DNA of 64,000 nt, taken from NCBI GenBank assembly GCA_020632535.1, contig JACKFJ010000005.1, positions 200 through 64,199 on the forward strand, given 5' to 3'. Below the pieces are notes generated by a model. That model saw only the letters and a program-made list of their open reading frames with translations. It was not told the origin of the DNA and ran no database searches. Source of the DNA: Candidatus Omnitrophota bacterium (GTDB lineage: Bacteria > Omnitrophota > Gorgyraeia > Zapsychrales > JANLHA01). The position numbers were made by a program, and so were the translations under genes. Every line of letters starts with the position of its first letter. Position 1 is the stretch's first letter. Below are positions 24,825 through 62,956 of this stretch, piece after piece.

Positions 24825-24826
24825 AT

Positions 24827-33195: not shown

Positions 33196-33256
33196 ATGAT
33201 CCTTTGTTTTTAAAAATTAATGTTTTTCCAAAATTAAAATTGGCTCTGCCCTGCTA

Positions 33257-35509: not shown

Positions 35510-35572
35510 ACGCTGGTCAATAGTTTAATACAATTTCTCAAAAACCAGCAATCTTTAAAAAGAATTAATCTA

Positions 35573-36757
35573 CTAAGGACTTTCTGGATGGCTTAATGTG
35601 ACATTCAAATTTGTTGGTTCAATACTTTCCAAATCGATATCTTCCGGAATTCGCAAATTATCCGCATGTAATTTAATATTTTGTTCCATATTCGTTAATT
35701 TTAAATCGAGGTTAACTTTAATATTTTGTACTTTCATTAAATACAGCGCCCTTCGCGTACCTCGCAATGTGATCCTTAATTCATTCGGTTCCAATTTTTG
35801 AACAATCCACGCTCCCGGCAAATTTGGATTTTGAACTGGTATCGTAAAGCTCTTATAAGTCGTTTCCGCTCCAAAAACGAGAACAAACCAAAGCCCAATA
35901 GCAATGATCAGCGCATAAAATTTTTCGCGCGATGTTTTCTTGAAAAGATTTTGCCAAAATGCTTCCAAAGGCTTAGGTTGATTCATTTGGTAAAAATCGT
36001 CGACAATGGCCGTCAAATGATCCGGATCTCGAACTTCTCTAAGTGAACCCTCATGCGCAACTGAAATTGTTCCCTTTTCTTCAGATACAATCAAACACAA
36101 AGCATCGCTGAGTTCCGCAAGCCCCAAACCAGCGGCATGACGAGTCCCATGATTTTTCAAAGCTTTCAAATTCTTAGACAAAGGAAGATGACAAGAAAAT
36201 AGAGTAATTTTATTTCCTTCAATAATCATAGCCCCGTCATGACCAGCAGAATGCGGGTCAAAGAGACTCGCAATCAATTGGGAGCTGATCACGCCATTAA
36301 GAACATGTCCTCCATCTAATTGTCGACCAATGACGTCCTTGCCTTTAATCACAACAAGAGCACCGATCCTCTTTCTCGCTAATTCAAATAAAGTCCTAAC
36401 TAAAACATCTGTTTGTGGAAGAATATATTTTTTGTCGAGTTTGATCCCAAACCTACGGTTGATTCCCCATGCCGCAATTCTCTCAAAAAAACGTCGAATT
36501 TCTTCCTGAAAAATAACAACAAAGGCAATAAAGATCACTCCAAAAAATTTCTCAAAAACCATCGAAATCATGACCAAATTAAATATACGCGCGATCAAAT
36601 ATACGAATAAAGTAATAAAAATACCCTTAAGAATAAAAGCGGCTCGTGTTTTATTAAACCAAATCAATAAAAAATAAATAAGAATCGCCATTAAAACGAT
36701 ATCTAATAAACCATTCCATCCAATTTCTAAAATCCAATTAAAAAAAAGACTCTTCAT
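35573..36757 (-). CDS. cdaA: diadenylate cyclase CdaA fused to a TM helix plus a YbbR-like domain
   Basis: Three N-terminal TM helices, then a DAC domain with HDGAMII and GTRHAAG (canonical GTRHRAA) and VSEEKGTISV. This is followed by a TM (FYALIIAIGLWFVLVF) and one YbbR-like repeat (ELRITLRGTRRAL..VNLDL..NLNVTL). Confidence 0.9.
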   Translation of the reverse strand: MKSLFFNWILEIGWNGLLDIVLMAILIYFLLIWFNKTRAAFILKGIFITLFVYLIARIFNLVMISMVFEKFFGVIFIAFVVIFQEEIRRFFERIAAWGINRRFGIKLDKKYILPQTDVLVRTLFELARKRIGALVVIKGKDVIGRQLDGGHVLNGVISSQLIASLFDPHSAGHDGAMIIEGNKITLFSCHLPLSKNLKALKNHGTRHAAGLGLAELSDALCLIVSEEKGTISVAHEGSLREVRDPDHLTAIVDDFYQMNQPKPLEAFWQNLFKKTSREKFYALIIAIGLWFVLVFGAETTYKSFTIPVQNPNLPGAWIVQKLEPNELRITLRGTRRALYLMKVQNIKVNLDLKLTNMEQNIKLHADNLRIPEDIDLESIEPTNLNVTLSHPESP

Positions 36758-36769
36758 AAATAATCACTC

Positions 36770-39562
36770 CTATTGATTCTTGACGATACACACAGATGCT
36801 GGGAAATTTGCGAATAATAAACCAACCGAGATCCGACTTGAAATAGTGACTTCTTGATTTGTAATAACGTCCTGATAATTTCCTTCACACCCTGCGGGGA
36901 GAACAAACACCGTATCACCCCAAATTGTATTGCCCAAAGGACATTGATCCATCGTCACAACTTCGCACAAAAACCGTGGGACAGCGACGACAATACTCTT
37001 ATTCAAATACCTACGCATAAAACCAATCACATGATTATGCAAACAGCCTTCGGCAATTAATGGAACATAATCACCTTTTCGGAAAACTTCTTCATATTCT
37101 TGAATTGCCATCAGCAATCGATTTGTTAGAAACAATTTAATCCCATCATCGGTTCGATTGAAAAGCAACTCAGAAATAATCTCATTTAATCTTTCTTGAC
37201 CCTGTGTCATGAAATTCGTCAATTGACGCTCACGACGACTATAATCAACCGCGCGACGATTATCAGGGTCGACCATTGTCAAATCCCAAAATTCTGTCCC
37301 CTGATAAGTATCCGGAACTCCCGGACTTGTCATTTTTAAAACCGTTTGTGAAAGAGAATTCCATACTCCGTACGCAGCGATTTTTCTTTGAAACGGTGAA
37401 AACGCTTTCAAAAATTCATTATCCAGCTCTGAATTAAGAAGATTATCGATAAATTGCAAACAGGCCTGCTCATATTGTTCCGCTGGCTTAATCCAAGCGG
37501 TATGACGTTTGGCCTCACGAATCGCTTTAATAAAATAACTTTTAATGCGCTCTAAATAATCTGACGACATCCCTTCAAATGGATATGTCCCAAGCAAAGT
37601 CTGATATAAAAAATACTCATCATTCTCATCCGGAGCAAGCACTCTCCCAACTTGCGTCTTTTTCCCTTTATTCACTTGGGCCCAATGCCGCAAATGATCA
37701 TCCCATTCTTGGGGCAATTCCGAAACAACATTAATCCTCGCTCTCACATCTTCACCACGCTTCATATCATGTGTAGCCGTCGCGCACATCGCGTGCGGTG
37801 TCATCGCTAATCGATGAGAATTAAAGGTGTGAAACTCATCCCGAGTAAATCCAAATTTCTCAGGACTTCCACCTACTTCATTAAGTGAAATTAGCACGTT
37901 ATAAACATAGAGCATCGTATCTTCAAACCCTTTAGCCATAACCGGACCGGTATATTGCTGAAAAGTCTGCACAAAGTTAAGCCAAGCCTTTTTATCTTCT
38001 TGCGAAGTTTCTTCACCAAATTGTAAAAGTAAGAACTTTTCAATAAAATTTAATTCATAAACAAATCCCGGAATTTTATTCTTAGCGCTGTGGATCGCGA
38101 TTTTTATATACTCCTCATCACTCAAACACACCGCATCACTATTGATATATGTTCGATAAATAGGAAAATGCGCCATGACTTCAACAAGCGCTCTACGCAA
38201 CCCATAAAGAGTAATATCTCTCCCCATCCGATCATGACTGGAAATCTTTTTAATTTGCTGCGCTAAATTATCAATGTTCCCAGCAAGATGTTTACTAATA
38301 ATCGTTCTTTTATTCTCACACAAAAGATCTTCATATGAAGACTTCCAACGCGCAAATGATAAATATAAATCTTCAAAAAGATTTTTATGGTCCGTACGGC
38401 AAAACACACCATTAACAATATTCATAAAATCATACCCCGTTGTCCCTTGCGTCAACCATTGCTTAGGCATATCTTCGTTAGGGAACAAAATCTTTTCGAC
38501 AACAATATAATGATCCGGAGCAATTCCCGAGAGCTGTTTCAAATAATTTTCAGGATCATACAGGCCGTCAATATGGTCAACTCTCAAACTTTGAACTTTA
38601 TTCTCTGCCACAAGCGACTGAATCAACTGATGAGTTAAATGAAAAATTTTCTCATCCTCAACGCGGACTGAAATCAAATCACTGATTGCAAAAAAGCGTC
38701 GATAGTTGATTTCTTCCGTCGCTACTTTCCAGAATGACAAACGATAATGCTGACTCGAAATCAATTCATCTAATGGGCCGTAATGATTTTGACCACCCTC
38801 CGCGCTGTTAAAGAATCGCAAATTCGCATCAATATATTTGGCAACTTTAACATTGCCTTGATAAAGCTGCCAAAGCATTGCTTTGGCATGCCGCATTTGA
38901 TCACTTTGCGCAAAATCCCCAATCTGATTTGCCAAGGCTTTGAATAAATTGATCACCCCTAATAATTTGATTAAATCTGCGTTATGCGCTAATTCCGCTT
39001 CAAGCTGTTTAATTTTATGCAAAAGGATTTGAACATAGGAACCGACCTTTATGGGAAAATGATACTGATAATAGTTGATTTTAAACCCATGCTCATCGTA
39101 AGAAAGCTGGATTTCACCGTCTTCCAAAGCTTGCGCATAAAACTTCCCCAACACCGGGACTAATAATCGACCACGCATATTCTCATACGGATGATTCCAG
39201 TCAATATCAAAAACATGGAAATATTTTGAATCTTCCCGATTCTCAAAAATATCCATTAACATCATATTGTCTGAATCCAATGCCATATGATTTGGAACAA
39301 TGTCCTGCATCCATGTCATTCCATGCTTTTTTAATTCCGCGATCAATTCTTCAAAATCTGCAAGCGTCCCTAATTCAGGATTAATTTGCGAAGGGTCGAC
39401 AATATCATACCCATGCAAACTTTTTACTCTGGCTTTAAATATGGGGGAAGCATAAACCTCCCCTATCCCAAGCTTAGATAAATAAGGAATTATTTCTTTC
39501 AACTTTCGAAAAGGAAATTGATGATTAAGCTGAACTCTATATGTCGATTGAGGGATTCGCAT
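36770..39562 (-). CDS. treY: malto-oligosyltrehalose synthase
   Basis: STYRVQLNHQFPF, VYASPIFKA..SLHGYD, QDIVPNHMA and LRVDHIDGL. The preferred ATG at 39562 overlaps the GH57 stop (TGATG). The longest ORF starts at 39586. Confidence 0.9.
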   Translation of the reverse strand: MRIPQSTYRVQLNHQFPFRKLKEIIPYLSKLGIGEVYASPIFKARVKSLHGYDIVDPSQINPELGTLADFEELIAELKKHGMTWMQDIVPNHMALDSDNMMLMDIFENREDSKYFHVFDIDWNHPYENMRGRLLVPVLGKFYAQALEDGEIQLSYDEHGFKINYYQYHFPIKVGSYVQILLHKIKQLEAELAHNADLIKLLGVINLFKALANQIGDFAQSDQMRHAKAMLWQLYQGNVKVAKYIDANLRFFNSAEGGQNHYGPLDELISSQHYRLSFWKVATEEINYRRFFAISDLISVRVEDEKIFHLTHQLIQSLVAENKVQSLRVDHIDGLYDPENYLKQLSGIAPDHYIVVEKILFPNEDMPKQWLTQGTTGYDFMNIVNGVFCRTDHKNLFEDLYLSFARWKSSYEDLLCENKRTIISKHLAGNIDNLAQQIKKISSHDRMGRDITLYGLRRALVEVMAHFPIYRTYINSDAVCLSDEEYIKIAIHSAKNKIPGFVYELNFIEKFLLLQFGEETSQEDKKAWLNFVQTFQQYTGPVMAKGFEDTMLYVYNVLISLNEVGGSPEKFGFTRDEFHTFNSHRLAMTPHAMCATATHDMKRGEDVRARINVVSELPQEWDDHLRHWAQVNKGKKTQVGRVLAPDENDEYFLYQTLLGTYPFEGMSSDYLERIKSYFIKAIREAKRHTAWIKPAEQYEQACLQFIDNLLNSELDNEFLKAFSPFQRKIAAYGVWNSLSQTVLKMTSPGVPDTYQGTEFWDLTMVDPDNRRAVDYSRRERQLTNFMTQGQERLNEIISELLFNRTDDGIKLFLTNRLLMAIQEYEEVFRKGDYVPLIAEGCLHNHVIGFMRRYLNKSIVVAVPRFLCEVVTMDQCPLGNTIWGDTVFVLPAGCEGNYQDVITNQEVTISSRISVGLLFANFPASVCIVKNQ

Positions 39563-41991
39563 CAAATTAATTTTATTCTCAAGCATTCACCCAATTGTGT
39601 AAATGCTTCAAAGACCCTTTTATCCTCTGGGCTAGCATTTTGTTTGTTTTGAATTGCTTTCGCATATTCCGGCCCGAGCGAAAAATAAATATTTTCCGCT
39701 TTCCACAAATTTAATATCAAATTTAACTCACCAATCAATTTGATCAATTCATTGATTTCTTCCATAATCTCAACACGCGGCGTTGAATCCCGAAAACACT
39801 CTTCAACAGACGCATTAATCCTGTTGCTACACAAAAGTCCCAACGCATCAATATCCAAGCGAATCGAAAAACGCTTGGTCTCTTGAATAATATGTTTCAG
39901 TTTTTGTTGATCGAGTTTGTCTCCCAATAAACATTCTTTAATTTGTGTGTTTAATAAGAACGGGAGAATCCCTTGAAAAAGTTCCGGCAAAACGACATTG
40001 TAACCTTCAGCCGCATGCAGTATTGAAGAATGATGCTCATAAACATGTCCCAACGACGATACAATTTCTTTACGCGCTTCATCAAAAATCAAATTGACAA
40101 CTTTTCTTTGTTCATCACGAAATAAATACCATAATGAAAAATGATGACTGGGAAAATGGCTATTCATTAAGAGAATCACATCAGGAGTCGCGCCACTTAA
40201 AAACGCTTTGCTGACCTGTTCTGTCATTGTCTTGTACGCCTCTTCTCCCTGAAAACTTCGAGCTCCGCATGTCACATTATGATCACCCATATGCAAGACC
40301 GCGAAACTCACTTCCTCCTCTTCCCACGTCAACCGCGATTTAATATATACCTTGCCTAACGCCAATTTATGCTTTCCAAATTTCAATTGTTCATAAGCAA
40401 GGCGTTCAACTTGATAAACATAAAGCTCCTCTGTCGCAGAAAGATCCGAAAATAGTGATGATACCGCGTAGTGAACACCCACCCGCAATAAATCTAAAAT
40501 TTGCGGCTCAACATACTTTTGATAAATAACCGACCCGTTTTGTAACTCCGGCAGATTGCTGGGTGCTCTTTGCAAAAGCCCTTTAAATGAATCCTGCAGT
40601 GAAATATTACTGACATTTTTAGCAATTTGAATAGCCCGAGCCGCGTAATTCATCACTTGCACCGTCTCAATGCCAGAGATCTCATCAAAAAACCAACCAC
40701 AACTCGTATACATCAATAATTCATGCCGCTGCATTTCCAAAAGCTTGAGAATTTTGACTTTTTCTTCTGGCGTTAATTCTTTTTTAGCATATTTTGATAA
40801 AAGAGAATGAACATGATTTGCGTCATGACTTAAAACAACGTGAATATAATCATTTCGTAAAGCCCAAATATCACTGACCAATTCACCAGCTTGCTGCTCA
40901 TATATTTCTGTCAGATTATCTCTTAACCAATCAAGCGCCCCACGCAATGGCGCGCGCCATTCTTGATTCCAATTGCCACGCATTCCAGAATTACAGCCGC
41001 AGTTTGCTTTCCAGCGCTCAACACCATGAACGCAACTCCATGAAGAATTCTCGTGAATCTGCGCCTCCCAAGTTGGCGGAAACTTCTCCAGATACTCAGC
41101 ATAAATTGTGATATTGGCTAAATCATTCGAAATCAAATGATGCAAACAATACGCCAAAGCCATATCCCCATAACGATGATGATGACCATATGTTTCTCCA
41201 TCCGTCGCAATATGTACTAATTCCGGATCCTTACTCGATTCTGAAAAAACGGAAAGAAGACGTCCCGAAAAACGCTCGCCGCTTTCCAACAATTTTTCAA
41301 AAGCAATTTGTTGTGAAATTGGACCGTCATAAAAAAACAAACTTATTGTCTTACCTGACGGCAGATGGCACAAATATGGACGTTTTGGATCAACTTGCCC
41401 TCCCGAAACATCAATCCATTCTTTCCCCTTTAATTTCTTGATTTTTGCCGCTTGATTAGGTGCTAAAATTGTAAATTTGATATTGTGATCTGCTAATAAT
41501 TCTAATGTTTCGGTATCAACCGCTGTTTCTGCCAACCACATCCCTTCCGGATAGCGCTTGAATCGATGCTCAAAATCACGTATTCCCCAAATAATCTGAG
41601 TTTCTTTATCCCGACGATTAGCCAATGGCATAATGATATGGTTATAAACCTGCGCCAAAGCACTGCCATGTCCGGAATACCGCTCCCGACTTTTTTTATC
41701 AGCGTCTAAAATTCCTTGATACGCAAGTGGATCATGTTTCTCAAGCCACATCAAAAGGGTTGGCCCAAAATTAAAGCTGATTCGAGAATAATTATTCACA
41801 ATACTCTGAATACGACCATCATTCCCAAAAATCCGAGAAGAAGCATTAGGAGCATAACACTCAGCCGTAATGCGGCTATTCCAATCATGATAAGGGTACG
41901 CTGAATCCTGAATTTCAACTTCTTCAAGCCACGGATTTTCACGCGGTGGTTGATAAAAATGTCCATGAATACAAATATAACGATTTGTCAT
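39562..41991 (-). CDS. glycoside hydrolase family 57 protein (long, DUF3536-type)
   Basis: ICIHGHFYQPPRENPW, MWLAETAVD (candidate nucleophile Glu) and IATDGETYGHHH (candidate acid/base Asp). The ATG at 41991 has a GGAG SD and overlaps the treZ stop as ATGA. Confidence 0.85.
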   Translation of the reverse strand: MTNRYICIHGHFYQPPRENPWLEEVEIQDSAYPYHDWNSRITAECYAPNASSRIFGNDGRIQSIVNNYSRISFNFGPTLLMWLEKHDPLAYQGILDADKKSRERYSGHGSALAQVYNHIIMPLANRRDKETQIIWGIRDFEHRFKRYPEGMWLAETAVDTETLELLADHNIKFTILAPNQAAKIKKLKGKEWIDVSGGQVDPKRPYLCHLPSGKTISLFFYDGPISQQIAFEKLLESGERFSGRLLSVFSESSKDPELVHIATDGETYGHHHRYGDMALAYCLHHLISNDLANITIYAEYLEKFPPTWEAQIHENSSWSCVHGVERWKANCGCNSGMRGNWNQEWRAPLRGALDWLRDNLTEIYEQQAGELVSDIWALRNDYIHVVLSHDANHVHSLLSKYAKKELTPEEKVKILKLLEMQRHELLMYTSCGWFFDEISGIETVQVMNYAARAIQIAKNVSNISLQDSFKGLLQRAPSNLPELQNGSVIYQKYVEPQILDLLRVGVHYAVSSLFSDLSATEELYVYQVERLAYEQLKFGKHKLALGKVYIKSRLTWEEEEVSFAVLHMGDHNVTCGARSFQGEEAYKTMTEQVSKAFLSGATPDVILLMNSHFPSHHFSLWYLFRDEQRKVVNLIFDEARKEIVSSLGHVYEHHSSILHAAEGYNVVLPELFQGILPFLLNTQIKECLLGDKLDQQKLKHIIQETKRFSIRLDIDALGLLCSNRINASVEECFRDSTPRVEIMEEINELIKLIGELNLILNLWKAENIYFSLGPEYAKAIQNKQNASPEDKRVFEAFTQLGECLRIKLI

Positions 41992-43865
41992 TTTTTCTCC
42001 AAACGATACGCGACAAATGCCCAAGGAGCAATTGTCACAACTTGATTACGTTTAATCATTGATGATAATTCATCCCCAATACCGGCCCATTGCGCCGCGG
42101 TTGAATCAATCATCTTTTTCCATGTGCCAACGGGGATATTCAAACGGCATGTTTGCGACTTAGCACCAAAATTTAGCAAACATAAAATTTCTTGCCGCTG
42201 ATGCCATCGGCGTAAAAGTAAAATCTTTCCCTCTGCGTCAAAGAAAATATCCATTTTCGACTTATCCAAATTCTTCAAAACCCCAGATGTTTGACGAACT
42301 TTTATCAAAGCCTGATAATATCGCAACATGGCCTGTTGTTTCTCTTGCGATAATTGATGCCACTGCAATTTTGATTCCAAAAAAGTTTGTTCATCTTGTG
42401 GATCCGGTGGTTCCCCTTTCCAAAGAAAGGCTTTAAATTCTTCTTTTCTCCCTTTCCGAACCGCACTGATTAAATTCTTGTCACCATGATCAACAAAATA
42501 GAAAAAAGGACTCTTCTCACCATATTCTTCCCCCATAAATAAAAGTGGAACATACGGCGCGGTCATCAGCAAACCCGCCGCCGCTTTTAACGCTTCAAAC
42601 GGGATTAAACTAGCCAATCTCTCCCCGTTCATACGGTTACCAATCTGATCATGATTTTGTAAACTGATTACAAATTGCTCAGCCTTACAATCTTCTACTG
42701 AGTTTCCATGATGGCGCTTACGAAAATCTGAATATTGTCCGTCATAAACAAAAGTTTTCTTTAAAGCTTTTAGAATATCTTCAAACCGACCAAAATCATG
42801 ATAATACCCAAATTGTTCCTTTGTCAGAACCGAATGCACCGCGTGATGAAAATCATCCGACCATTGCGCATCAATTCCAAGCCCCCCCAGTTGAGCGGGA
42901 CGAACAACTGTCGCGTCATTCAAATCACTTTCGGCAATCAAAAGACGCTTTCGTCGATCTACGAGTGAAAATGCCCGCGTTTTCTGAGCCAACTCTTTTA
43001 AGAAATGCTTAGCACTAAAGTCATAAATCGCGTGAACCGCATCTAGACGAAGAGCATCAACATGAAAATCACGAAACCAATATAAGGCATTCTCAAAAAA
43101 ATAATTTCGAACCTCATCAGAATAACGGTCATCGAAATTCACTGCCCAGCCCCATGGCGTTTTATATTTGTCTGTAAAATAAGGCCCGAATTGATTAAGA
43201 TAATTTCCTTCTGGCCCCAAATGGTTATAAACAACGTCGAGAATTACCGCCAAGCCTCGACAATGACATTCATCGATCAATCGTTTAAAAGAATTTACCC
43301 CACCGTAGGAATTCTGTACTGCGAAAGGATAAACGCCATCATAGCCCCAATTCCGTTGACCGGGAAATTGCGCGACTGGCATAATCTCAACGGCTGTAAT
43401 CCCTAAAGAAGATAAATAATCTAACTTTTCAATCGCGGCGTCAAATGTCCCTTTTGCCGTAAAAGTCCCGACATGCAATTCATAAATGATCATTTGTTCT
43501 AATTTTATTCCTGTCCATTTTCGATCCGCCCAAGAATATTGTTTATGATCAATGATTTGTGAGGGGCCATGAACACCTTGTGGTTGTGATAATGAAGCAG
43601 GGTCGGGCTTATCCCCAAAAGCAGACGAATGGTAAAAATATAAATCGCCCGGATCGACATCTGTCGCAGTTATTTCCCAATATCCATCCCTAACAGATTT
43701 CATCGGTAATTTTAGTTTCGGGCGCTTAACAAGTTTTACGGACACGTCCTCGGCAAAGGGCGCCCAAACTCGAAAACGACATTTCTTTTTCCCTAAGTAA
43801 CACGCACCAATATTTATCGAATCTGACACAGACTTTTCCTCACTGACTTTTTTTAAGAACAACAA
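41988..43865 (-). CDS. treZ: malto-oligosyltrehalose trehalohydrolase
   Basis: FRVWAP, NWGYDGV, VILDVVYNHLGPEGNY and DALRLDAVHAI. The longest ORF starts at TTG 43865. GTG at 43832 with a GAGGA SD is a plausible true start just after the glgB stop. Confidence 0.9.
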   Translation of the reverse strand: MLFLKKVSEEKSVSDSINIGACYLGKKKCRFRVWAPFAEDVSVKLVKRPKLKLPMKSVRDGYWEITATDVDPGDLYFYHSSAFGDKPDPASLSQPQGVHGPSQIIDHKQYSWADRKWTGIKLEQMIIYELHVGTFTAKGTFDAAIEKLDYLSSLGITAVEIMPVAQFPGQRNWGYDGVYPFAVQNSYGGVNSFKRLIDECHCRGLAVILDVVYNHLGPEGNYLNQFGPYFTDKYKTPWGWAVNFDDRYSDEVRNYFFENALYWFRDFHVDALRLDAVHAIYDFSAKHFLKELAQKTRAFSLVDRRKRLLIAESDLNDATVVRPAQLGGLGIDAQWSDDFHHAVHSVLTKEQFGYYHDFGRFEDILKALKKTFVYDGQYSDFRKRHHGNSVEDCKAEQFVISLQNHDQIGNRMNGERLASLIPFEALKAAAGLLMTAPYVPLLFMGEEYGEKSPFFYFVDHGDKNLISAVRKGRKEEFKAFLWKGEPPDPQDEQTFLESKLQWHQLSQEKQQAMLRYYQALIKVRQTSGVLKNLDKSKMDIFFDAEGKILLLRRWHQRQEILCLLNFGAKSQTCRLNIPVGTWKKMIDSTAAQWAGIGDELSSMIKRNQVVTIAPWAFVAYRLEKK

Positions 43866-45780
43866 TACTTAATGGCGGAAGCGTTAATGCTAATGAATGA
43901 TAAAATCCATGAATCGCGACGGGATCACTTTCTTGGCCGCCCATATTCCCATGACCACTACCACCGTATTCATTCGCATCCGTATTGAGAATTTCCCGCC
44001 AATACCCTGATTGCGGGACGCCAACTCGATACGCACAACGCAGCGCCGGCGTAAAATTGCACACAATCAAAAGATCATCTTGGGGATGTTGCGTTTTTCT
44101 TAAGAAACTAATTACGCTTTGTTGTGAATCACTTGAATCAACACAGTGAAAACCTTCCGACAAGAAATCCGTTTGATACAGAGCTGGTTCCGTTTTATAC
44201 AAATTGTTCAAGTCCTTGACACATTGCAAAATTCCCGCGTGCGCAGGATACTGTAACAAATGCCAATCAAGACTTTTTTCATGGTTCCATTCATCCCATT
44301 GCCCGAATTCACAACCCATAAAAAGCAGTTTTTTACCCGGATGTGTAAACATATACCCATACAATAATCGCAAATTGGCGAATTTTTGCCATTGATCACC
44401 GGGCATTTTATTAATCAATGACCCCTTGCCGTGCACCACTTCATCATGTGACAGCGACAGTACAAAATTCTCTGTAAACGCGTACAAATAACTAAACGTC
44501 AATTCACCATGATGATATTTACGAAAAACCGGATCCTCAGCAAAATAACTCAACGTATCATGCATCCATCCCATGTTCCATTTCATGCCAAATCCCAGCC
44601 CTCCTAAGTACAAAGGCCGCGACACTCCGGGCCAAGCTGTTGATTCTTCCGCGGTCACTTGCGTGTCAGGAAAATATTCATAAACAGTTTTGTTCAGTTG
44701 TTTTAAAAACTCAATGGATTCAAGATTTTCACGTCCCCCATATTTATTCGGAATCCATTCTCCCTCTTTGCGAGAATAGTCTCGATAAAGCATTGAAGCT
44801 ACCGCATCAACCCGCAGCCCGTCAACATGATACTTGTCCAACCAAAACACAGCACTGGAAATCAAAAATTCCTTTACTTCTTGACGGCCCAGATTAAAAA
44901 TATAACTTTTCCAATCCGGGTGAAAACCTTCTCTTTTATCTGTATGTTCAAATAGATTCGTGCCATCAAAATAAACTAACCCGTGCTCATCGGATGGGAA
45001 ATGTGATGGAACCCAATCTAAGATGACACCAATATTGTTTTGATGTAACGCATCAATCAAGAACATAAAATCCTGCGGTGTTCCATACCGATTCGTAGGA
45101 GCAAAATAACCAATCGATTGATAACCCCATGACCCGTAGAACGGATGCTCCATAACCGGCAAAAATTCCACATGCGTAAAACCTGTCGCTTTAATGTAAT
45201 CGACTAAATATTTTGCTAATTCCCGGTATGTGCAATAACGGTTATTTTCTTCAATAATCCTGCGCCAAGATCCTAAGTGAATTTCATAAATAGACATCGG
45301 CTTATCAAGCGCGTTAAATTGCTGCCTTTTTTTCATCCATGATTGATCCGTCCATTCGTTTTCTAAATCCCAAACAATTGAAGCTGTTTTAGGAGGAACT
45401 TCATTAAAAAACGCGTACGGATCACGTTTCTCAACGGAATAATTCTGATTCTTGGAAGTAATGGAGTACTTATACAGCGTTCCTTTTTCCAGTCCTTCAA
45501 TAAATCCCTCCCAAATCCCCGACGAGTCCCAGCGCGCGGACAAAGGATGCTTCCCTTTGGCCCAACCGTTAAAATCACCGATAACCGAGACACTTTCGGC
45601 ATTAGGTGCCCAAACCGCGAAATGAACACCCGCTTTTCCGTTGCGCACAATCAAATGCGACCCTAATTTCTCATAAAGTTTATAATGATTCCCCTCGCGA
45701 AATAAATAAATATCATGTTCAGTTATAAAGTTCTGTTCTGTTGTCAAAATCTTACTATCCGCATTTTTAACATCAGCCAT
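43840..45780 (-). CDS. glgB: 1,4-alpha-glucan branching enzyme
   Basis: THVEFLPVMEHPFYGSWGYQ, GVILDWVPSHFP, HVDGLRVDAVASMLY and AEESTAWP. Strong SD AAGGAGG. Confidence 0.95.
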   Translation of the reverse strand: MADVKNADSKILTTEQNFITEHDIYLFREGNHYKLYEKLGSHLIVRNGKAGVHFAVWAPNAESVSVIGDFNGWAKGKHPLSARWDSSGIWEGFIEGLEKGTLYKYSITSKNQNYSVEKRDPYAFFNEVPPKTASIVWDLENEWTDQSWMKKRQQFNALDKPMSIYEIHLGSWRRIIEENNRYCTYRELAKYLVDYIKATGFTHVEFLPVMEHPFYGSWGYQSIGYFAPTNRYGTPQDFMFLIDALHQNNIGVILDWVPSHFPSDEHGLVYFDGTNLFEHTDKREGFHPDWKSYIFNLGRQEVKEFLISSAVFWLDKYHVDGLRVDAVASMLYRDYSRKEGEWIPNKYGGRENLESIEFLKQLNKTVYEYFPDTQVTAEESTAWPGVSRPLYLGGLGFGMKWNMGWMHDTLSYFAEDPVFRKYHHGELTFSYLYAFTENFVLSLSHDEVVHGKGSLINKMPGDQWQKFANLRLLYGYMFTHPGKKLLFMGCEFGQWDEWNHEKSLDWHLLQYPAHAGILQCVKDLNNLYKTEPALYQTDFLSEGFHCVDSSDSQQSVISFLRKTQHPQDDLLIVCNFTPALRCAYRVGVPQSGYWREILNTDANEYGGSGHGNMGGQESDPVAIHGFYHSLALTLPPLSIVVLKKSQ

Positions 45781-45792
45781 TTCAGACCTCCT

Positions 45793-48700
45793 TTATACGC
45801 TCGCATTATTAATTCCTAAAATATATTTAATTCCCGTCAGTGGAATCAAAGTTTTCGCAGGACGATTATTTAATTCATATCCCAGTTCATAAACCGCTTT
45901 ATCTAAAAGAAAAATGTCCAGCAAAAGCTCAATCTCTTCGCTTGATGTTGGAATAAACACCGAGGAAGACGAAGCCCCCAGATATGACTTTAGAAAAAGT
46001 TGACTAGCCCAAAAATACCAAGCATGAGCCCAAGGCTCCAAGAATTTCAATTCATCTTCCGGCAATGTCGACTTTAACAATAAAGAACTAAAAGCCGCGT
46101 AATGAAACGAGCGGATCATTCCGGCAACATCACGGAAAGCGGAACGCTTGAGTTTTCGTTCCGTGACGGAACGACTCGGTTCCCCCTCAAAATCAATAAT
46201 CGTAAAATCCTTACCCGTAAATAAGACCTGACCCAAATGATAATCACCATGGATCCGAATTCTTGCTGCCGAAAGTTTTTTCTCCTTAATCCGCAACAAA
46301 CTTTTAAGAATATTTTTCTCGCTCGCAAAAACAATATCTGCTTGCTTTTGAATATTCTTTGGAAGGTATGAATATTGCGCGTGTAAAGTTTGAAAAACTC
46401 GCTTCAACTGTCCCTGCATGGATTGCAAAACAGAACGTTGATATAAGATTGTAAAATCCTCTGGAACAAAATCCGGGAAGTCCTGCGAAGCTAGAGCCTC
46501 ATGCATTTCTCGTGTTCTCTGCCCTAGCAATTTGATCATTTCTGGAAAGATTGGATCAGAGGCTTCACTCAATATCTTGATATTTTCGGGAAGCTCATCT
46601 TTTAACAAAGACACTGGAACCACCGGAACATTTTGATATTTATCCTTATTCGATAAAATATTCTCAAAATACCGTCCTAATTGGTCTAAAAAATACGCCC
46701 ACGTATCGCCTTGATTCGGAATAAAATAGCTCAACATAGCTAACGTTGTAGGTTCAGATTTTGGAGAGACATATTGAATCGCTCCCGCATACGAAGAAAA
46801 ATGAGAGAATGATGTCTTCTCAGTCAGGAATTTTGTAATTTCCAAATCAGGATTGACACCTTCCTTGATCTGACGAAAAAACTTTAAGAAGAATTCCTGT
46901 CCATAAATTATCGAAGAATTACTTTGTTCGGCTTTTAAAACTTTGGAAGAAAATGGCTCCGTGTGACTTTCATAAACTAAACGCATTGATTTCCCCGGGT
47001 AAAATAGCAATCGGCCATCTCGACCGGAAATTCTCTTTTTATCCGCAATCGAGTCCAAAAAGAATTGCTGCAAGGAAGCATCATAAATGCCGTCATATAA
47101 ATAGCCCTCCCCTTGTCCTAGAACCAAATTCGCGATCAAGCATTGGGGATTTTCATTAATCAAATTGACTAACTTCGTTTTTTCTTCATACGCCAAAATT
47201 AATGAATACATCCGCGCAATTCCATCGTAAAAAACAACATTCACAAAGAGACAAACGGCATTCTTCCCCAAAAGATCAAACATCTCCGTGATCTTAACAC
47301 TCTTAATCGCATTTGCTTTTTGACCAAACCAGCGACACTTAGGCAAATATTGCGGCAAAATCTGATTCTCTAAATTATCCAATAAATCACGCTCAAAAAT
47401 TTCTCTCCAACTTTCACTAAGATTAATGGTTGGAATTTCCTGAAGCTGCTCAACACCCGTCGTAATTGTCGCCTTCTTAAGAACAAACCAAAAATGTGTA
47501 TACGCGCCCAAAGTCACAACATAAGGTGATTGTGTAATTTGAGGAAATTTATTCTGACTAAAGATTTCCTCAGGAATATATCCCGCATATTCCGCGAGAT
47601 TCAATTCAATCGCCTGAGAAAATCGCGACAAATTGATAACACACAAAATAACTTCTTCTTCAAATTTACGGACAAAAACCAAAACCTTCTTATTCTCGGT
47701 ATACAAAAAATCCAGTGTCCCACGGCTAAAAGCTTTGAATTTCTTACGCATAAAAATTACACGGCGCATCCACCACAACAACGATGACAAATTCCCTTCC
47801 TGATTCTCAACATTGACACTGCTATATTGATATTCTGGGTCAATCACAACGGGCAAATACAAGCGTTGAGGATTCGTCTGAGAAAAACCCGCGTTCTTAT
47901 CCGGGCTCCACTGCATCGGAGTCCGAACTCCATTACGATCCCCCAAATAAAAATTATCACCCATCCCGATTTCATCCCCGTAATAAATAATCGGGGTTCC
48001 TGGCAAAGACAAAAGAAGAATATTCATCAATTCCACTTTCTTACGATTATTCCCCAAAAGCGGCATCAATCGTCGTCGTATCCCTAAATTGATCTTTGCT
48101 TTAGAATCTTTAGCAAATGAATGGTACATATAATCCCGCTCTTCGTCGGTAACCATTTCTAATGTCAATTCATCATGATTTCTTAAGAAAATCGCCCATT
48201 GGCATGCATCTGGAATCGCCGGTGTTTGCTCTAGGATATCTTTAATCGGAAAATTATCTTCCATTTGCATCGCCATAAACATCCGCGGCATTAAAGGAAA
48301 ATGAAATGCCATCTGACAAGAATCACCTTCTCCAAAATAAGCGACAGCATCTTCCGGCCATTGATTAGCTTCTGCCAAAAGCATTTTGTTCTTATACTTA
48401 CTATCGACATACGATCTTAACTTCTTGAGAAAAGCATATGTCTCTGGAAGATTTTCACAATTTGTCCCTTCTCGCTCATATAAATACGGAACCGCGTCCA
48501 GACGCATTCCATCAACACCCATCTCCATCCAAAAATCCACAACCTTAAATAATTCCTTATGAACCAACGGATTATCAAAATTTAAATCCGGCTGATGCGA
48601 ATAAAAGCGATGCCAATAATACGATTTAGCGACAGGATCCCATGTCCAATTTGAAGGCTCAAAATCCTTAAAAATAATTCGCGCCTCTTTATATTTCTTA

Positions 48701-49125
48701 GGATCATCGCTCCACACATAATAATTTCTCAGTGCCGAACCCGGCTTCGCCATTCTCGCTTTTTGAAACCAATCGTGTTGATCAGAAGTGTGATTAATCA
48801 CCAATTCCGTAATCACGCGAATCCCGCGCGAATGAGCTTCATTTAAAAATTCTTTAAAATCCTTAATCGTCCCGTATTGCGGATGAACAGCAAAATAATC
48901 AGCGATATCATAGCCATCATCCCGTAAGGGTGACGGATAAAATGGTAAAACCCAAACCGCGGTAACTCCCAACTTCTGCAGATGATCTAACTTTTGCGTC
49001 AATCCGGGAATATCGCCAATACCATCAGCATTGCTATCATAAAAAGATTTGATATGAACTTGATAAATAATCGCGTCTTTGTACCACAAGAGATCGTCTT
49101 TAAATTTCTTGGTCTTTTTTGCCAT
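45793..49125 (-). CDS. treS: trehalose synthase fused to maltokinase (TreS-Pep2/Mak)
   Basis: N-terminal GH13 part: [26 protein letters not shown] and [13 protein letters not shown]. C-terminal kinase part: [27 protein letters not shown]. The ATG at 49125 has a GGGAG SD. The longest ORF starts at 49167. Confidence 0.9.
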   Translation of the reverse strand: [1110 protein letters not shown]

Positions 49126-49167
49126 GTTATCTCCCAAATGATTAAAGTAATGCCGCAACAATAACAA

Positions 49168-51123
49168 TTATTTGATACAAAAGATGTGGGCTGGAATTTT
49201 ATATGGATTTAACTCCACAAAATTCCAATCTCCATTCCAAATATATTCATCACGAGTCAACAAATCCTTAATTTTATATGGCTTGTCATATGGTATTCCC
49301 CATTCATGCAGAGGAACTTTAATCATGCCGCTCTGTGTATTCGAAGAATCCAAATTCACAACAACCAAAATAATATTTTTATAATCCGGTGACGTCTTGA
49401 CATAAGCGATTAACTGATCATTATTGACATCACAAAACTGAACATTCCAAGTTGTTTGCAAAGCAACATTTTCTTTGCGAATTTTATTCACGCGAGTCAT
49501 TAAATCTTTCAGATTCCCTGGCGCATCCCAATCCCACTTCTTAATTTCATATTTCTCTGATTCGAAATACTCTTCCTTTTCAACAACAGCATCTTTAACA
49601 CACAAATCAAATGCCGGTCCATAAATCCCATAATTGGAAGACAACGTTGCCGCGAGAACAAAGCGACTGATAAACGCCGGCCGACCACCACTTTGCAAAT
49701 GATACGGCAGAATATCCGGCGTATTCGGCCAAAAATTTGGACGAAAATATTCCCGCGATTCCGTCCGAGTTAATTCATTGACATATTCAATAAGATCCGA
49801 CTTCATTGGGCGCCATGTAAAATACGTGTACGACTGATGAAAGCCCAACTTGGCTAATTGCTTCATAATGTTAGGTCGAGTAAATGCTTCAGCAAGAAAT
49901 ATGACATCGCGATGCTTTTTACGGATTTCTCGGATCATCCATGCCCAAAACGCGAATGGTTTGGTATGCGGATTATCAACACGAAAAATCTTAACACCTT
50001 TGTCAATCCAAAAATCGACCACACTTTTTAATTCGTCCCATAATTCCGCCGAATTCTCACAATAGAAATTAATGGGGTACACATCTTCATATTTCTTGGG
50101 TGGGTTTTCGGCATATTGGATACTACCATCAGGTCGTTTGAAAAACCATTCTGGATGTTCCTTGACATAAGGATGATCCGGAGAACACTGATAGGCTAAA
50201 TCAAGTGCAATATTAATTCCCAAAGATTCTGCGGTTCGAACCAACTTTTGAAAATCTTCCATCTTCCCAAGCTGAGAATGAATCGCCTTATGACCGCCGT
50301 CTTTATTGCCAATGGCCCACGGACTCCCCGGGTCTCCCGTTTTTCCAGTACGAGCATTATTTCTCCCTTTTCGATTCGTATCGCCAATCGGATGAATCGG
50401 CGGGAAATAAACGACATCAAAGCCCATACGAGCAATGACGGGCAAAATGCTCTCGGCGTCCTTGAATGTTCCATGAGCGCCATTCTTACCAAATGATCGC
50501 GGGAAAAATTCATACCAGCTGCTTACCAACGCCTTTTGCGGCTCAACATGAACCTTTAATGTTTTTTCATAACTGACACATGTTGACGACGCAGGAATCT
50601 CTTGCGTAAGTTTTAAGAGTTCTTCGCTTAAAAGCAATTTTTGCGTTTCAGCAGAACTAGACGATTTTCGAATCTGCCCTCTCAAAACATCAAAACGCTT
50701 TACTGCCTTTTCTTTTCCCGATATTGCCTCTAAATATTGAATTCCCGCGAGAATATCAACAGTAACATCTTGCCCTGCATCTATTTTCTTTCGAAAATCA
50801 ATTTGCCAAGTTTCGAAATCATTAACCCACGCCTGCAACGAATATTCATAATCCACATCATGCGTAATCACCAATTCACCCTGCCAACGATCATTTCCGA
50901 TTGCAATCATTGACACTGTTGTCCACGTTGTATCCCCACATTTGCGGTACAGCAAAAAAGCGTTAACACTATTATGTCCTTCGGTGTAAATATCCGCCTC
51001 AACACAAACAACCTCATGAACAATCCTCTTAATTGGAAACAAACCTCCATCAATTTCCGGAGAAACATGTTCAATAATAACTCTAGGCAACAATTGCTTT
51101 GCTTTGTCTACGGCTGTCGTCAT
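49168..51123 (-). CDS. glgE: alpha-1,4-glucan:maltose-1-phosphate maltosyltransferase
   Basis: VKIFRVDNPHTKPFAFWAWMI signature, N-terminal RVIIEHVSPEIDGGLFPIKR and GH13-like core. Start is ATG 51123 or GTG 51132. Confidence 0.9.
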   Translation of the reverse strand: MTTAVDKAKQLLPRVIIEHVSPEIDGGLFPIKRIVHEVVCVEADIYTEGHNSVNAFLLYRKCGDTTWTTVSMIAIGNDRWQGELVITHDVDYEYSLQAWVNDFETWQIDFRKKIDAGQDVTVDILAGIQYLEAISGKEKAVKRFDVLRGQIRKSSSSAETQKLLLSEELLKLTQEIPASSTCVSYEKTLKVHVEPQKALVSSWYEFFPRSFGKNGAHGTFKDAESILPVIARMGFDVVYFPPIHPIGDTNRKGRNNARTGKTGDPGSPWAIGNKDGGHKAIHSQLGKMEDFQKLVRTAESLGINIALDLAYQCSPDHPYVKEHPEWFFKRPDGSIQYAENPPKKYEDVYPINFYCENSAELWDELKSVVDFWIDKGVKIFRVDNPHTKPFAFWAWMIREIRKKHRDVIFLAEAFTRPNIMKQLAKLGFHQSYTYFTWRPMKSDLIEYVNELTRTESREYFRPNFWPNTPDILPYHLQSGGRPAFISRFVLAATLSSNYGIYGPAFDLCVKDAVVEKEEYFESEKYEIKKWDWDAPGNLKDLMTRVNKIRKENVALQTTWNVQFCDVNNDQLIAYVKTSPDYKNIILVVVNLDSSNTQSGMIKVPLHEWGIPYDKPYKIKDLLTRDEYIWNGDWNFVELNPYKIPAHIFCIK

Positions 51124-51154
51124 TATTAGCACCTGCCTTTTCTAAAAAGTTCCC

Positions 51155-51751
51155 CTACGATTGAATTCCACGAATAAAAATATCCCAAAGCGATTCCATT
51201 TTATTAAGCGGAAAAACGGTATAGTTTGTTAACGCGTAAAGAATAATACATGTTTGAATAAGTCCAAAAAAAGCAAGACTGGCTGCTTCTAGGTCAGTAT
51301 CACCGCGAATATTCTTTTTCGTTTTGGCGACTTCTAAAATCTCCTTAATTTGAGATTGATAATTTTTAACAACTTCAAGAACCCTCTTAGTTAGAACTTT
51401 ATCTTGAAAATGAATCGATTCCGACGTGATTGCAAAGAAAATCCCCTTCTTTCTTTCTGAAAGCAATAGATGAGCGCGCATAATCTCTTTTAATTGGTCT
51501 AATGGCGCGGATTGCAGGGAAATAGAATTTTTTATGCCTTCGATTAATGTTCCTTCAAAATCCTCAATCAAGGCGGTTAAAATGGCACGCTTATTCTTAA
51601 AATGCCGATACAGCGCCGGTTCAGAAAGCTTCATTTTGGTAGAAAGGTTCTTAATCGTCAAAGCCTTGGTGCCCTGATGAACAATCAAGTCGCGCGCGAT
51701 ATCGATGATTTCTTTTTTACGAATGTCTGTGGATTTTTTAGTCATAATCAT
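51155..51751 (-). CDS. TetR family transcriptional regulator
   Basis: N-terminal HTH (TIKNLSTKMKLSEPALYRHFKNKRAIL), 198 aa. First gene of the glucan/trehalose operon, with a 22-31 nt gap to glgE. Confidence 0.9.
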   Translation of the reverse strand: MIMTKKSTDIRKKEIIDIARDLIVHQGTKALTIKNLSTKMKLSEPALYRHFKNKRAILTALIEDFEGTLIEGIKNSISLQSAPLDQLKEIMRAHLLLSERKKGIFFAITSESIHFQDKVLTKRVLEVVKNYQSQIKEILEVAKTKKNIRGDTDLEAASLAFFGLIQTCIILYALTNYTVFPLNKMESLWDIFIRGIQS

Positions 51752-51779
51752 GTTAGTTAGCGTTAACTAACATGATTAT
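51744..51779. promoter_or_regulatory. 36-bp palindromic operator (candidate TetR site)
   Basis: Perfect 16-bp arms ATAATCATGTTAGTTA (51744..51759) / TAACTAACATGATTAT (51764..51779) with a 4-nt spacer. It spans the -10 box, the predicted TSS and the tetR start codon. Confidence 0.65.
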
Positions 51780-51802
51780 ATAGAAGAATGGGGTTTTGTC
51801 AA
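51775..51802 (-). promoter_or_regulatory. consensus sigma70-type promoter of the tetR-glgE operon
   Basis: Minus strand reads TTGACA (51802..51797), a 16-nt spacer, then TATAAT (51780..51775). Both hexamers are perfect consensus. Confidence 0.7.
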
Positions 51803-51873
51803 GCGGAACAAACACCTTCATGGCCTGTCTTTCGTGAACAACTTGTTTATTTCAATCTTGCGGTCAACCACCG

Positions 51874-58881: not shown

Positions 58882-58883
58882 CC

Positions 58884-59415: not shown

Positions 59416-59429
59416 AATTATTGGAGATT

Positions 59430-62945: not shown

Positions 62946-62956
62946 TGCGGTCCCCC

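Follow-up and report, generated by a model that had tools for sequence, protein, structure and literature searches.

The locus lies on the minus strand of a 64,000-nt stretch of DNA (the window) from an uncultured Omnitrophota bacterium. In order of reading it comprises genes for a TetR-family regulator (tetR), a maltosyltransferase (glgE), a trehalose synthase–maltokinase fusion (treS-pep2), a branching enzyme (glgB), a malto-oligosyltrehalose trehalohydrolase (treZ), a GH57/DUF3536 protein, a malto-oligosyltrehalose synthase (treY) and a CdaA-class cyclase (cdaA). At each junction from tetR to cdaA the spacing read from the sequence is 42 nt or less, or the stop and start codons overlap, and Shine-Dalgarno (SD) motifs precede nearly all starts. 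No terminator-like site was seen in any gap of the array, nor any Rfam element. These eight genes, their positions and their tight packing had been described in a first-pass annotation and were all borne out by the sequence and by profile matches, as were the three junctions it had singled out (ATGA between treZ and the GH57 gene, TGATG between the latter and treY, and 12 nt before cdaA). Its use of the common orientation as operon evidence fails: the minus strand is favoured window-wide, in GC skew as well as in gene orientation, with nearly all of the window's genes lying on it, and co-orientation of the tetR–cdaA genes is thus uninformative. From these junctions, and from the treY–cdaA adjacency kept in relatives (below), we infer that the genes from tetR to cdaA are co-transcribed as one unit.

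A sigma-70-type promoter, TTGACA-16-TATAAT (51775..51802, minus strand), is the sole 12/12 consensus match in the 19.5 kb scanned (33000..52500), in agreement with the single upstream promoter proposed earlier. Promoter-like sites in the same scan numbered 58 in total versus 53.9±5.7 in shuffled sequences, i.e. there was no excess. Directly 3' of the −10 box and spanning the expected transcription start, the sequence contains a perfect 11+11 bp palindrome, CATGTTAGTTA-acgc-TAACTAACATG (51749..51774, minus strand), which occurs once in the window (chance expectation 0.03 matches) and is likely to be the TetR operator. The promoter is also kept in a 94%-identical relative (L001), as is the palindrome bar one outer mismatch. 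The adjoining tetR gene (51155..51745, minus strand) encodes 196 residues counted from ATG 51745 (Pfam TetR_N, E=1.6e-10). The longest reading frame begins at 51751, and since its first ATG reads ATA in L001, ATG 51745 is favoured as the probable start. A TetR_N helix-turn-helix protein and a palindrome beside its own promoter are the feature pair of a TetR-family autoregulated operon, and binding of this regulator to the palindrome is predicted. Its closest solved relatives among the PDB matches listed are SlmA and FadR; against the NCBIfam SlmA-like model it scores 87 bits (cutoff 120). A close sequence relationship to the DarR-type, c-di-AMP-responsive TetR regulators was considered and finds no support, as no DarR occurs among the 60 PDB matches listed and SlmA and FadR are nearest.

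The six genes that follow, all on the minus strand, encode enzymes of trehalose and α-glucan metabolism, the GH57/DUF3536 protein by prediction. The ATG of glgE (49168..51123) at 51123 lies 31 nt past tetR and is preceded by the SD motif AAGGCAGG; the product is identified by two family-specific Pfam domains (GlgE_dom_N_S, 158 bits; GLGE_C, 96 bits) and matched no NCBIfam equivalog. After 42 nt, with a GGGAG SD upstream, treS-pep2 (45793..49125) starts at ATG 49125, its product matching both the TreS model TIGR02456 (890 bits, cutoff 678) and the maltokinase model TIGR02457 (446 bits, cutoff 375). A 12-nt gap with an AGGAGG SD leads to glgB (43840..45780; NF003811, 985 bits, cutoff 741). The treZ frame (41988..43865; TIGR02402, 746 bits, cutoff 539) probably starts at GTG 43829, about 10 nt past glgB, and shares the ATGA overlap (41991..41988) with the GH57+DUF3536 gene (39562..41991; DUF3536, 382 bits; GH57, 63 bits), whose product is a predicted α-glucan-active enzyme. 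For treY (36770..39586; TIGR02401, 905 bits, cutoff 499) the start is either ATG 39586 or ATG 39562, the latter overlapping the stop codon of the GH57 gene (TGATG, 39564..39560). Hence the GlgE pathway from trehalose to α-glucan is complete (TreS, Pep2, GlgE, GlgB), and for the opposite route both TreY and TreZ score above their equivalog cutoffs, with the GH57/DUF3536 enzyme grouped on that side.

The eighth gene, cdaA (35573..36757, minus strand), begins 12 nt past treY with a GGAG SD that overlaps the treY stop codon. An internal terminator or promoter that would uncouple the two genes had been considered in the first-pass annotation; at the sequence level this SD-occupied junction holds no terminator-like and no strong promoter-like site. 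The 394-residue product joins a CdaA to a fourth transmembrane (TM) helix and one putative YbbR/CdaR-like domain. It matches Pfam DAC (115 bits) and, with its N-terminal three-helix module, CdaA_N (33.6 bits, cutoff 23.8). An AF2 model (pLDDT 82) places TM helices at residues 2–36, 40–58 and 62–82, followed by the DAC domain, TM4 (276–295) and a confident β domain. Compared with CdaA/DacA crystal structures by Foldseek, the DAC domain gave E values of about 1e-14 and target-normalised TM-scores of 0.88–0.90 at 36% identity, and the alignment to the full-length CdaA structure 9g69 begins at residue 17. NCBIfam TIGR00159 (CdaA) scored 185.0 bits, just below its cutoff of 188.8, with residues 15–241 aligned and the fused C-terminal part extra. 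Among 114 homologues the HDGA motif (173–176) is invariant; the second motif reads GTRHAA versus GTRHRAA in the reference CdaA, i.e. RHA for the canonical RHR, with R206 and H207 invariant and A208 at least 90% conserved. The YbbR match itself is sub-threshold (21.6 bits, cutoff 22.3); YbbR was detected in 19 of the 114 homologues at E≤0.01 (best 1.2e-5), and the best PDB match of the C-terminal profile is Lmo2119 (E=0.0033), which we take to be the CdaR of L. monocytogenes. The protein is thus predicted to be a membrane diadenylate cyclase of the CdaA class.

The array had been said to end in cdaA. It does not; the run continues without a terminator into a gene for an SLC12-family cation/chloride cotransporter (33257..35509, minus strand; Pfam AA_permease and SLC12) 63 nt past cdaA, and after a further 61 nt into one for a CPA-type K+(Na+)/H+ antiporter with an RCK N-domain (31381..33195, minus strand; Na_H_Exchanger and TrkA_N). 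To judge from this spacing, both very probably belong to the same transcription unit. The SLC12 protein has a below-cutoff match to TIGR00930, the K-Cl cotransporter subfamily; the antiporter carries TrkA_N alone, with no detectable TrkA_C. A domain search found none of the known c-di-AMP receptor domains (RCK_C, CBS pair, PII-like) in the window's proteins, and the window showed no SbtB-like gene. As further context, Pfam confirmed the two MscS genes and ion transporters noted nearby: one MscS-family channel at 56157..57254 (MS_channel domains), and a CorA Mg2+ transporter (61881..62945) which with the second MscS (62957..63982) spans 61881..63982, all on the minus strand.

The linkage of cdaA to sugar genes is not unique to this genome. 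A comparative survey of cdaA adjacency to treY and glgE, as the first-pass annotation had suggested, revealed treY→cdaA adjacency in three more Omnitrophota lineages (L003, L004, L089; CdaA identity 63–64%), with a 1-nt overlap in L003 and a 16-nt gap in L004. The GH57+DUF3536 gene co-occurs with treZ, treY and cdaA in L003, L004, L045, L071, L079 and L093, and in L003 the array is followed by OtsA–MscS–OtsB–GH15 trehalase. Out of 82 loci, 20 carry a GlgE, TreYZ, GH57 or GlgB gene within 10 kb of cdaA, 14 of them within 500 nt. When OtsAB, GlgX and extra loci are counted, 29 of 90 loci are linked (≤10 kb), in at least eight phylum-level groups and at least six separate CdaA clades; the 80 genome loci were those most similar to the query CdaA, and this linkage of about 30% may not hold family-wide. 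Gene orders vary (cdaA→glgE→treS→glgB, glgB→cdaA, GH57→cdaA, divergent), 7 loci pair cdaA with OtsAB, and glgB stands alone beside it in L055, L069 and L070. About two thirds of the cdaA loci have no sugar gene within 10 kb. The cyclase gene also has recurrent neighbours of other kinds: DHH phosphodiesterases (at about 30 of 90 loci), MgtE/CorA/CNNM, MscS, SLC12, CPA antiporters and K+ channels. Both CorA and MscS turn up beside cdaA in other phyla, the SLC12 gene is syntenic 3' of cdaA in L001 and L003 and near it in L091, and CPA-type antiporter-like genes adjoin cdaA in L001, L003 and L092. As a control, unrelated neighbours in the window (CARDB, tetR, DUF2064, rSAM, GT2) matched no locus other than that of the 94% relative. 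A literature search found no paper on a cdaA–trehalose/glucan linkage, in keeping with the annotator's impression that cdaA had not been described within a glgE/treYZ operon.

The 94% relative provides a natural deletion. A segment of 12,625 bp from mid-glgE to mid-treY (38042..50666, minus strand; blastn breakpoints) is absent with precise ends, with GAAAA microhomology on both sides and the same junction in a second assembly (L002). All six sugar genes are lost; tetR, cdaA, the SLC12 gene and the CPA antiporter gene are retained, together with a 1.27-kb treY 3' remnant upstream of cdaA. The coupling of cdaA to the sugar genes is therefore dispensable. The label of an integrated osmoadaptation locus, given earlier to the region, holds in part: the recurrent DHH, MgtE/CorA/CNNM, MscS, SLC12 and CPA neighbours support it, whereas this loss of the sugar genes, with cdaA and the transporters kept, speaks against it.

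The deletion is also an argument for a different explanation, in which cdaA belongs to a downstream ion module (cdaA–SLC12–CPA) with its own promoter in the 3' part of treY, and the sugar genes are an unrelated, exchangeable cassette. The treY remnant would fit a cdaA promoter lying there. Ion transporters are the established class of c-di-AMP targets and are found again beside cdaA in other phyla, and nearly all genes in the window share one orientation. However, the 3' half of treY has no promoter-like site above 9/12, with counts matching those in shuffles, the treY–cdaA gap of 12 nt has its SD on the treY stop codon and stays as tight in relatives (overlapping genes, or 16 nt between them), and trehalose/glucan linkage occurs in many phyla without an SLC12 or CPA gene. 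We regard this explanation as unlikely, though it is the strongest competitor.

Less probable still is a control of carbon and energy storage, not osmotic, with c-di-AMP reporting metabolic state and governing glycogen, and trehalose a mere glucan precursor. Precedents are published: in cyanobacteria c-di-AMP-bound SbtB acts on GlgB (PMC8654305), and in Streptomyces GlgX is bound by c-di-GMP (PMC9530166). The loci in which glgB is the only such neighbour of cdaA fit as well. Evidence against such a role comes from the seven loci linked to OtsAB, whose de novo route to trehalose bypasses glucan, from the MscS, K+ and Mg2+ transporters that accompany cdaA, from the L003 array, which adds two MscS genes and a trehalase, and from a window in which no SbtB-like gene was seen. 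That the adjacency is chance or hitch-hiking without functional meaning is highly improbable: a compact, strand-biased genome with long co-directional runs, and the two thirds of homologous loci in which sugar genes are not near cdaA, would allow it, but in a genome of at least 2 Mb a given cluster would, by our estimate, fall within 10 kb by chance in about 1–2% of cases, versus the 26–32% observed, 14 of the 20 linked genes directly adjoin cdaA, and the linkage extends over the separate CdaA clades in differing gene orders.

We favour, with moderate confidence, a TetR-controlled unit that combines both trehalose/glucan routes, a diadenylate cyclase and, very probably, two ion transporters, in which c-di-AMP would tune ions and perhaps the sugar cycle. 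TetR on the start-overlapping palindrome would repress the single strong promoter until a ligand relieves repression, upon which all genes of the unit would be made together. Cyclase activity may be tuned at the membrane via the TM and periplasmic YbbR part and would set the c-di-AMP level, by which ion flux would be adjusted; c-di-AMP is an osmotic alarm messenger, and its control of K+ systems is established in Firmicutes. As both directions of the cycle are encoded in one operon, transcription alone cannot set its direction. Directly or via a receptor, c-di-AMP may do so, and the cell would then balance osmotically active sugar versus inert polymer, matched to its ion pools. That c-di-AMP acts on the transporters, or on the sugar enzymes, is a supposition drawn from these gene associations.

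Several known systems share parts of this arrangement. Cyanobacterial SbtB likewise ties c-di-AMP to the α-glucan branching enzyme and to glycogen levels, but at the protein level via a PII-like receptor, with operon linkage not reported (PMC8654305); no SbtB homologue is seen here. In Firmicutes (Bacillus, Listeria, Staphylococcus) the cdaA–cdaR–glmM operon likewise encodes a CdaA-class cyclase at the membrane, in which a DAC domain follows three N-terminal TM helices, together with sugar-metabolising enzymes; an extracytoplasmic domain of the YbbR/CdaR type, putative in the present protein, is associated with the cyclase in both cases. There CdaR is a separate four-domain protein, whereas here a single putative YbbR domain is fused to CdaA via the fourth TM helix, and RHA replaces RHR. 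The cyclase is accompanied by trehalose/α-glucan enzymes, DHH phosphodiesterases and ion transporters; none of the 25 top-ranking Pfam families in the immediate neighbourhood of cdaA at 70+ loci is glmM-like (PGM_PMM). The GlgE and TreY/TreZ pathways of Actinobacteria and Pseudomonas comprise the same enzymes in operon-type clusters. In those organisms the two routes usually occupy separate operons, while here a single TetR promoter precedes both, and cdaA adjoins them. No diadenylate cyclase is known to be described with either pathway, and c-di-AMP does not occur in the 300,000 characters searched of a 2024 α-glucan review. The Gram-positive c-di-AMP systems (KtrA, CpaA, KimA, OpuC, BusR) are alike in using the messenger for osmotic and ion homeostasis and in involving cation transporters, including an RCK-domain CPA antiporter, which here adjoin the cyclase. 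In contrast to them, the phyla with the present linkage are Gram-negative and uncultured, and the transporters of the window carry neither RCK_C nor CBS. Finally, the Gram-positive targets serve uptake of external solutes, whereas the genes linked to cdaA here make and remove endogenous trehalose; by gene context, the recurrent pairing points to an undescribed link of c-di-AMP with the cell's own trehalose reserves.

The eight genes that the first-pass annotation had placed in one array were all found on the minus strand of the window, each identity being backed by Pfam and NCBIfam. They encode a TetR-family regulator (51751/51745..51155), GlgE (GlgE_dom_N_S 158 bits, GLGE_C 96 bits), a TreS–maltokinase fusion (TIGR02456 890 bits, TIGR02457 446 bits, both above cutoff), GlgB (985 bits), TreZ (TIGR02402, 746 bits), a GH57+DUF3536 protein of 820 aa, TreY (TIGR02401, 905 bits) and CdaA (394 aa). 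Reading of the sequence gave gaps of 31 nt (tetR to glgE), 42 nt (glgE to treS), 12 nt (treS to glgB) and about 10 nt (glgB to treZ), followed by an ATGA overlap between treZ and GH57 (41988..41991) and a TGATG overlap between GH57 and treY (39560..39564), both exactly where they had first been placed. The gap between treY and cdaA is 12 nt, and a GGAG Shine-Dalgarno motif overlaps the treY stop. GC skew is negative all along the window and, between 13.9 kb and 64 kb, the minus strand carries nearly all genes, so co-orientation per se has no evidential weight; this rests on the short gaps and the Shine-Dalgarno motifs.

Contrary to the first proposal, the array does not end in cdaA. The next gene, 63 nt on, encodes an SLC12-family cation/chloride cotransporter, and another 61 nt separate it from the gene of a CPA-type K+(Na+)/H+ antiporter bearing TrkA_N. 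The synteny cdaA–SLC12–antiporter recurs in L001 and L003, loci of relatives with 94% and 64% identity, respectively. RCK_C (TrkA_C) was undetectable in the antiporter even at E≤1, its PDB matches covering the membrane domain only, and no known c-di-AMP receptor domain was found among the window's proteins.

The upstream consensus promoter, described at first pass as single, is indeed so: TTGACA-16-TATAAT (51802..51775) is the sole 12/12 match within 19.5 kb. Overall counts of promoter-like sites equal those of shuffled sequence, and only one internal minus-strand site reaches 10/12, within treZ. Terminator-like sites number 23 (17.1±3.8 in shuffles); none lies in an intergenic gap of the array, including that between treY and cdaA, where a terminator had been envisaged as uncoupling the two genes. 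Immediately after the −10 box, at 51774..51749, there is a perfect palindrome, CATGTTAGTTA-acgc-TAACTAACATG, absent from the first-pass annotation, which occurs once in the window and is kept, with the promoter, in the 94% relative. The layout of this putative operator is as expected of a TetR site blocking its own promoter. The longest tetR reading frame opens inside it at ATG 51751. Since this codon is ATA in the 94% relative (window 51743-51751), ATG 51745 is probably the true start; the leader would then be about 20 nt long and lack an obvious Shine-Dalgarno motif, unlike the other genes of the array. A DarR-type c-di-AMP-responsive repressor was considered and rejected for want of similarity; among the PDB matches listed, the best relatives of the regulator are SlmA and FadR. 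No Rfam element, including the c-di-AMP (ydaO/kimA) riboswitch, was detected in the window at gathering thresholds. Directly upstream of the promoter, a 1370-aa protein (51874-55986, minus strand) comprises a GH2-like TIM-barrel segment, Big_7, fn3 and six CARDB repeats, the internal repeats sharing about 65% DNA identity among themselves (blastn).

The arrangement is not unique to this genome, a reservation made at first pass. On contigs encoding the closest CdaA relatives, treY→cdaA recurs in three lineages at 63–64% identity: L003 (glgB–MscS–treZ–GH57–treY–cdaA–SLC12–Na/H exchanger–…–OtsA–MscS–OtsB–GH15 trehalase), L004 (treZ–GH57–treY–cdaA–MgtE–CNNM; treZ by tblastn) and L089 (GH57–treY–cdaA; GH57 by tblastn). 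In bacterium F11 (50%), an SLC12–DUF502–cdaA–MgtE–DHH array has treY, treZ, treS-pep2 and glgX within 10 kb. The L003 genes downstream of cdaA–SLC12–antiporter (15585-21185) encode OtsA, MscS, OtsB and a GH15-type trehalase (TREH_N), and a second MscS gene is inserted between glgB and treZ; one strand thus holds three trehalose routes, a trehalase and two MscS genes.

In the 94% relative the sugar genes have undergone a natural deletion. The gene order on its Omnitrophota contig (L001, 164 kb) is tetR – glgE fragment – treY fragment – cdaA – SLC12 – antiporter. Positions 8716 and 8717, adjacent on L001, map by blastn to window 50667 and 38041, so that window 38042..50666 (12,625 bp, mid-glgE to mid-treY) is cleanly missing, with GAAAA at both breakpoints and frameshifted remnants at L001 8260-9988 between tetR and cdaA. 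An assembly artefact is unlikely, as the identical junction, GAAAA microhomology included, recurs in L002, another assembly (Logan collection) with 100% identity over 5 kb, though both may stem from the same sample. The deletion joins glgE to treY out of frame. No stop codon has yet arisen in the treY remnant, and its synonymous-to-nonsynonymous ratio of 87:42 is slightly below that of intact genes, which dates the loss as recent. The sugar module is thus dispensable, cdaA and the transporters being retained behind the TetR promoter; the retained 3' part of treY leaves room for a cdaA promoter there. The strain offers a ready comparison by a natural 12.6-kb deletion. Its gene content would fit a cdaA that is part of a transporter module alone; set beside the recurrence of treY→cdaA in three other lineages, that explanation appears unlikely.

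For distant loci, one genome per GTDB species was scanned, and the best 80 matches (36–49% identity) were searched with the window's proteins for neighbours. A GlgE-pathway, TreY/TreZ, GH57 or GlgB gene lies within 10 kb of cdaA in 20 of 82 loci, 14 of which have a sugar gene within 500 nt. The order cdaA→glgE→treS-pep2→glgB(→treZ) was found in Binatia, Syntrophobacteraceae and 'delta' lineages, and glgB→cdaA and GH57→cdaA in Planctomycetia; sugar genes flank cdaA on both sides in a Verrucomicrobiota genome, and other loci have divergent layouts. OtsA/OtsB occur near cdaA in seven loci, chiefly of Bacteroidota and Ignavibacteriales. Four further loci were picked solely on contig size, one of them in a complete Nitrospiraceae genome with DHH–cdaA–MgtE–treZ-like–GH57/DUF3536. 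In total, the cyclase is linked to trehalose/α-glucan genes in 29 of 90 non-redundant loci, a fraction that may be inflated family-wide because 80 loci are the best matches to this CdaA. Scanning metagenomes with CdaA as the sole query yielded no more than three distant DAC loci (L086–L088), which contributed nothing further. By analogy with cyanobacterial SbtB–GlgB (PMC8654305), the link might serve carbon storage; the glgB→cdaA order would suit such a role, the OtsA/OtsB loci less readily, and we consider it improbable.

Linked loci spread over at least six separate CdaA clades in an NJ tree. Chance adjacency is very hard to credit, given our own estimate of 1–2% for a given cluster falling within 10 kb in a genome of ≥2 Mb and an internal control in which the window's unrelated neighbours (CARDB protein, TetR, DUF2064, radical-SAM DUF3641, GT2) matched only the 94% relative.

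At about 70 loci, the genes next to cdaA on either side were also compared with Pfam. The commonest upstream neighbour is a DHH-family protein (13/73 by Pfam; about 30/90 by tblastn and gene tables), plausibly a c-di-AMP phosphodiesterase; the window's 64 kb contain no DHH gene. On the downstream side, α-amylase-family/GlgE proteins, MgtE, MscS, CorA and MalQ head the list. The phosphoglucosamine-mutase (glmM-type) family is absent from the top 25 Pfam families on either side, which makes this context distinct from the Firmicute cdaA–cdaR–glmM operon. Three of the four size-picked loci have cdaA flanked by a three-gene set (L093 6297-8939, L094 12571-15231, L096 11249-13967), absent from the window, that encodes a RimB-like protein, a RimK-type ATP-grasp ligase with TrkA_C (RCK_C) and an AstE/AspA-family hydrolase. 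In KtrA/CpaA, it is domains of the RCK_C type that bind c-di-AMP, so the ligase may be a c-di-AMP-controlled enzyme. In L093 (Nitrospiraceae), a mannosylglycerate-synthase-type glycosyltransferase (MGS_GT), a further compatible-solute gene near a CdaA+YbbR cyclase, and an MscS-like gene lie at 4287-5540, a few kb upstream of DHH–cdaA.

The AlphaFold model of CdaA (pLDDT 82) shows three N-terminal helices, the DAC domain, a fourth transmembrane helix (276–295) and a C-terminal β domain. The DAC part matches CdaA/DacA crystal structures with target-normalised TM-scores of 0.88–0.90 at 36% identity. As CdaA crystal structures filled the 50 Foldseek matches listed for the whole model, with no YbbR structure among them, a profile search was made with the C-terminal domain; its top solved relative is Lmo2119 (E=0.0033), which we take to be CdaR of Listeria. 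The β domain scores slightly below the Pfam YbbR threshold, and YbbR was detected in 19 of 114 homologues. Together these matches mark the gene as a probable CdaA–CdaR-type fusion, in line with the original cdaA-ybbR label. The family comprises 2863 matches in Omnitrophota, Verrucomicrobiota, Nitrospirota, Thermodesulfobacteriota and others. It carries GTRHAA where reference CdaA has GTRHRAA, R-H-A (window 36134-36142, cdaA codons 206-208) replacing the R-H-R of reference CdaA/DisA, and Ala208 is ≥90% conserved (114 homologues, alignment A4). TIGR00159 scores 185 (cutoff 188.8). Cyclase activity is predicted as likely. The matches also delimit a probable family of CdaA–YbbR fusions, widespread and marked by the RHA form of the motif.

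Two MscS genes and CorA lie in the window 20–27 kb upstream of cdaA. The stretch that parts the CorA/MscS pair from the second MscS (58453-61609, minus strand) encodes an OmpR-type response regulator and a HAMP histidine kinase, then two small PG_binding_1 proteins. Elsewhere on the minus strand, three genes whose junctions overlap encode DUF2064, radical-SAM/DUF3641 and GT2 proteins (29034-31290), a trio with conserved synteny in the 94% relative. After it come a pyridine-nucleotide disulphide oxidoreductase and a VTT-domain protein. A copper-type resistance cluster (20594-26230) encodes an OEP outer-membrane protein, a multicopper oxidase, a MarR-family regulator and a P-type ATPase with YHS and HMBD metal-binding domains.

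The best-supported reading is that of a predicted TetR-gated transcription unit, probably including the two ion transporters, that co-expresses both directions of trehalose⇄α-glucan conversion with a membrane diadenylate cyclase and sits inside a wider ion/turgor neighbourhood. TetR-gated transcription would make both directions together with the cyclase, and any directional control would then be post-transcriptional.

Known chiefly from Gram-positive bacteria, c-di-AMP governs potassium and the uptake of external compatible solutes; its control of Firmicute K+ and osmolyte-uptake systems makes it an osmotic and ion-homeostasis messenger. To our knowledge, little has been learnt of its wiring in many Gram-negative or uncultured phyla that carry cdaA. 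In the loci described here, the cyclase gene is recurrently linked, in many arrangements, to genes for making, storing and releasing trehalose, Mg2+/K+ transporters, MscS and a candidate DHH phosphodiesterase. What is new is that this genomic coupling recurs and that it extends to the synthesis and storage of endogenous trehalose. The finding would be an instance of c-di-AMP osmoregulation connected with an internal solute/polymer cycle, the carrier being the CdaA–YbbR fusion family of Gram-negative and candidate phyla. The linkage yields a concrete, testable hypothesis, that c-di-AMP also governs endogenous osmolyte/glycogen cycling. We suggest only tentatively that c-di-AMP, or CdaA–YbbR through CdaA–GlmM-like contacts, might directly control the enzymes (GlgE/TreS-Pep2 versus TreY/TreZ; OtsAB elsewhere). 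As targets of c-di-AMP these would form a class that is not known so far, and the messenger would govern an internal 'osmolyte buffer' between trehalose and inert polymer in many such phyla.

That cdaA had not been described in a glgE/treYZ operon, as supposed at first pass, agrees with a search of full-text literature mostly outside subscription journals. No description was found there of a diadenylate cyclase linked with GlgE, TreS, TreY/TreZ or OtsA, and the accessible part of a 2024 α-glucan review mentions no cyclase link to GlgE, TreS, TreY/TreZ or OtsA. The nearest published links are c-di-AMP–SbtB–GlgB (PMC8654305) and c-di-GMP–GlgX (PMC9530166). Both operate at the level of proteins.
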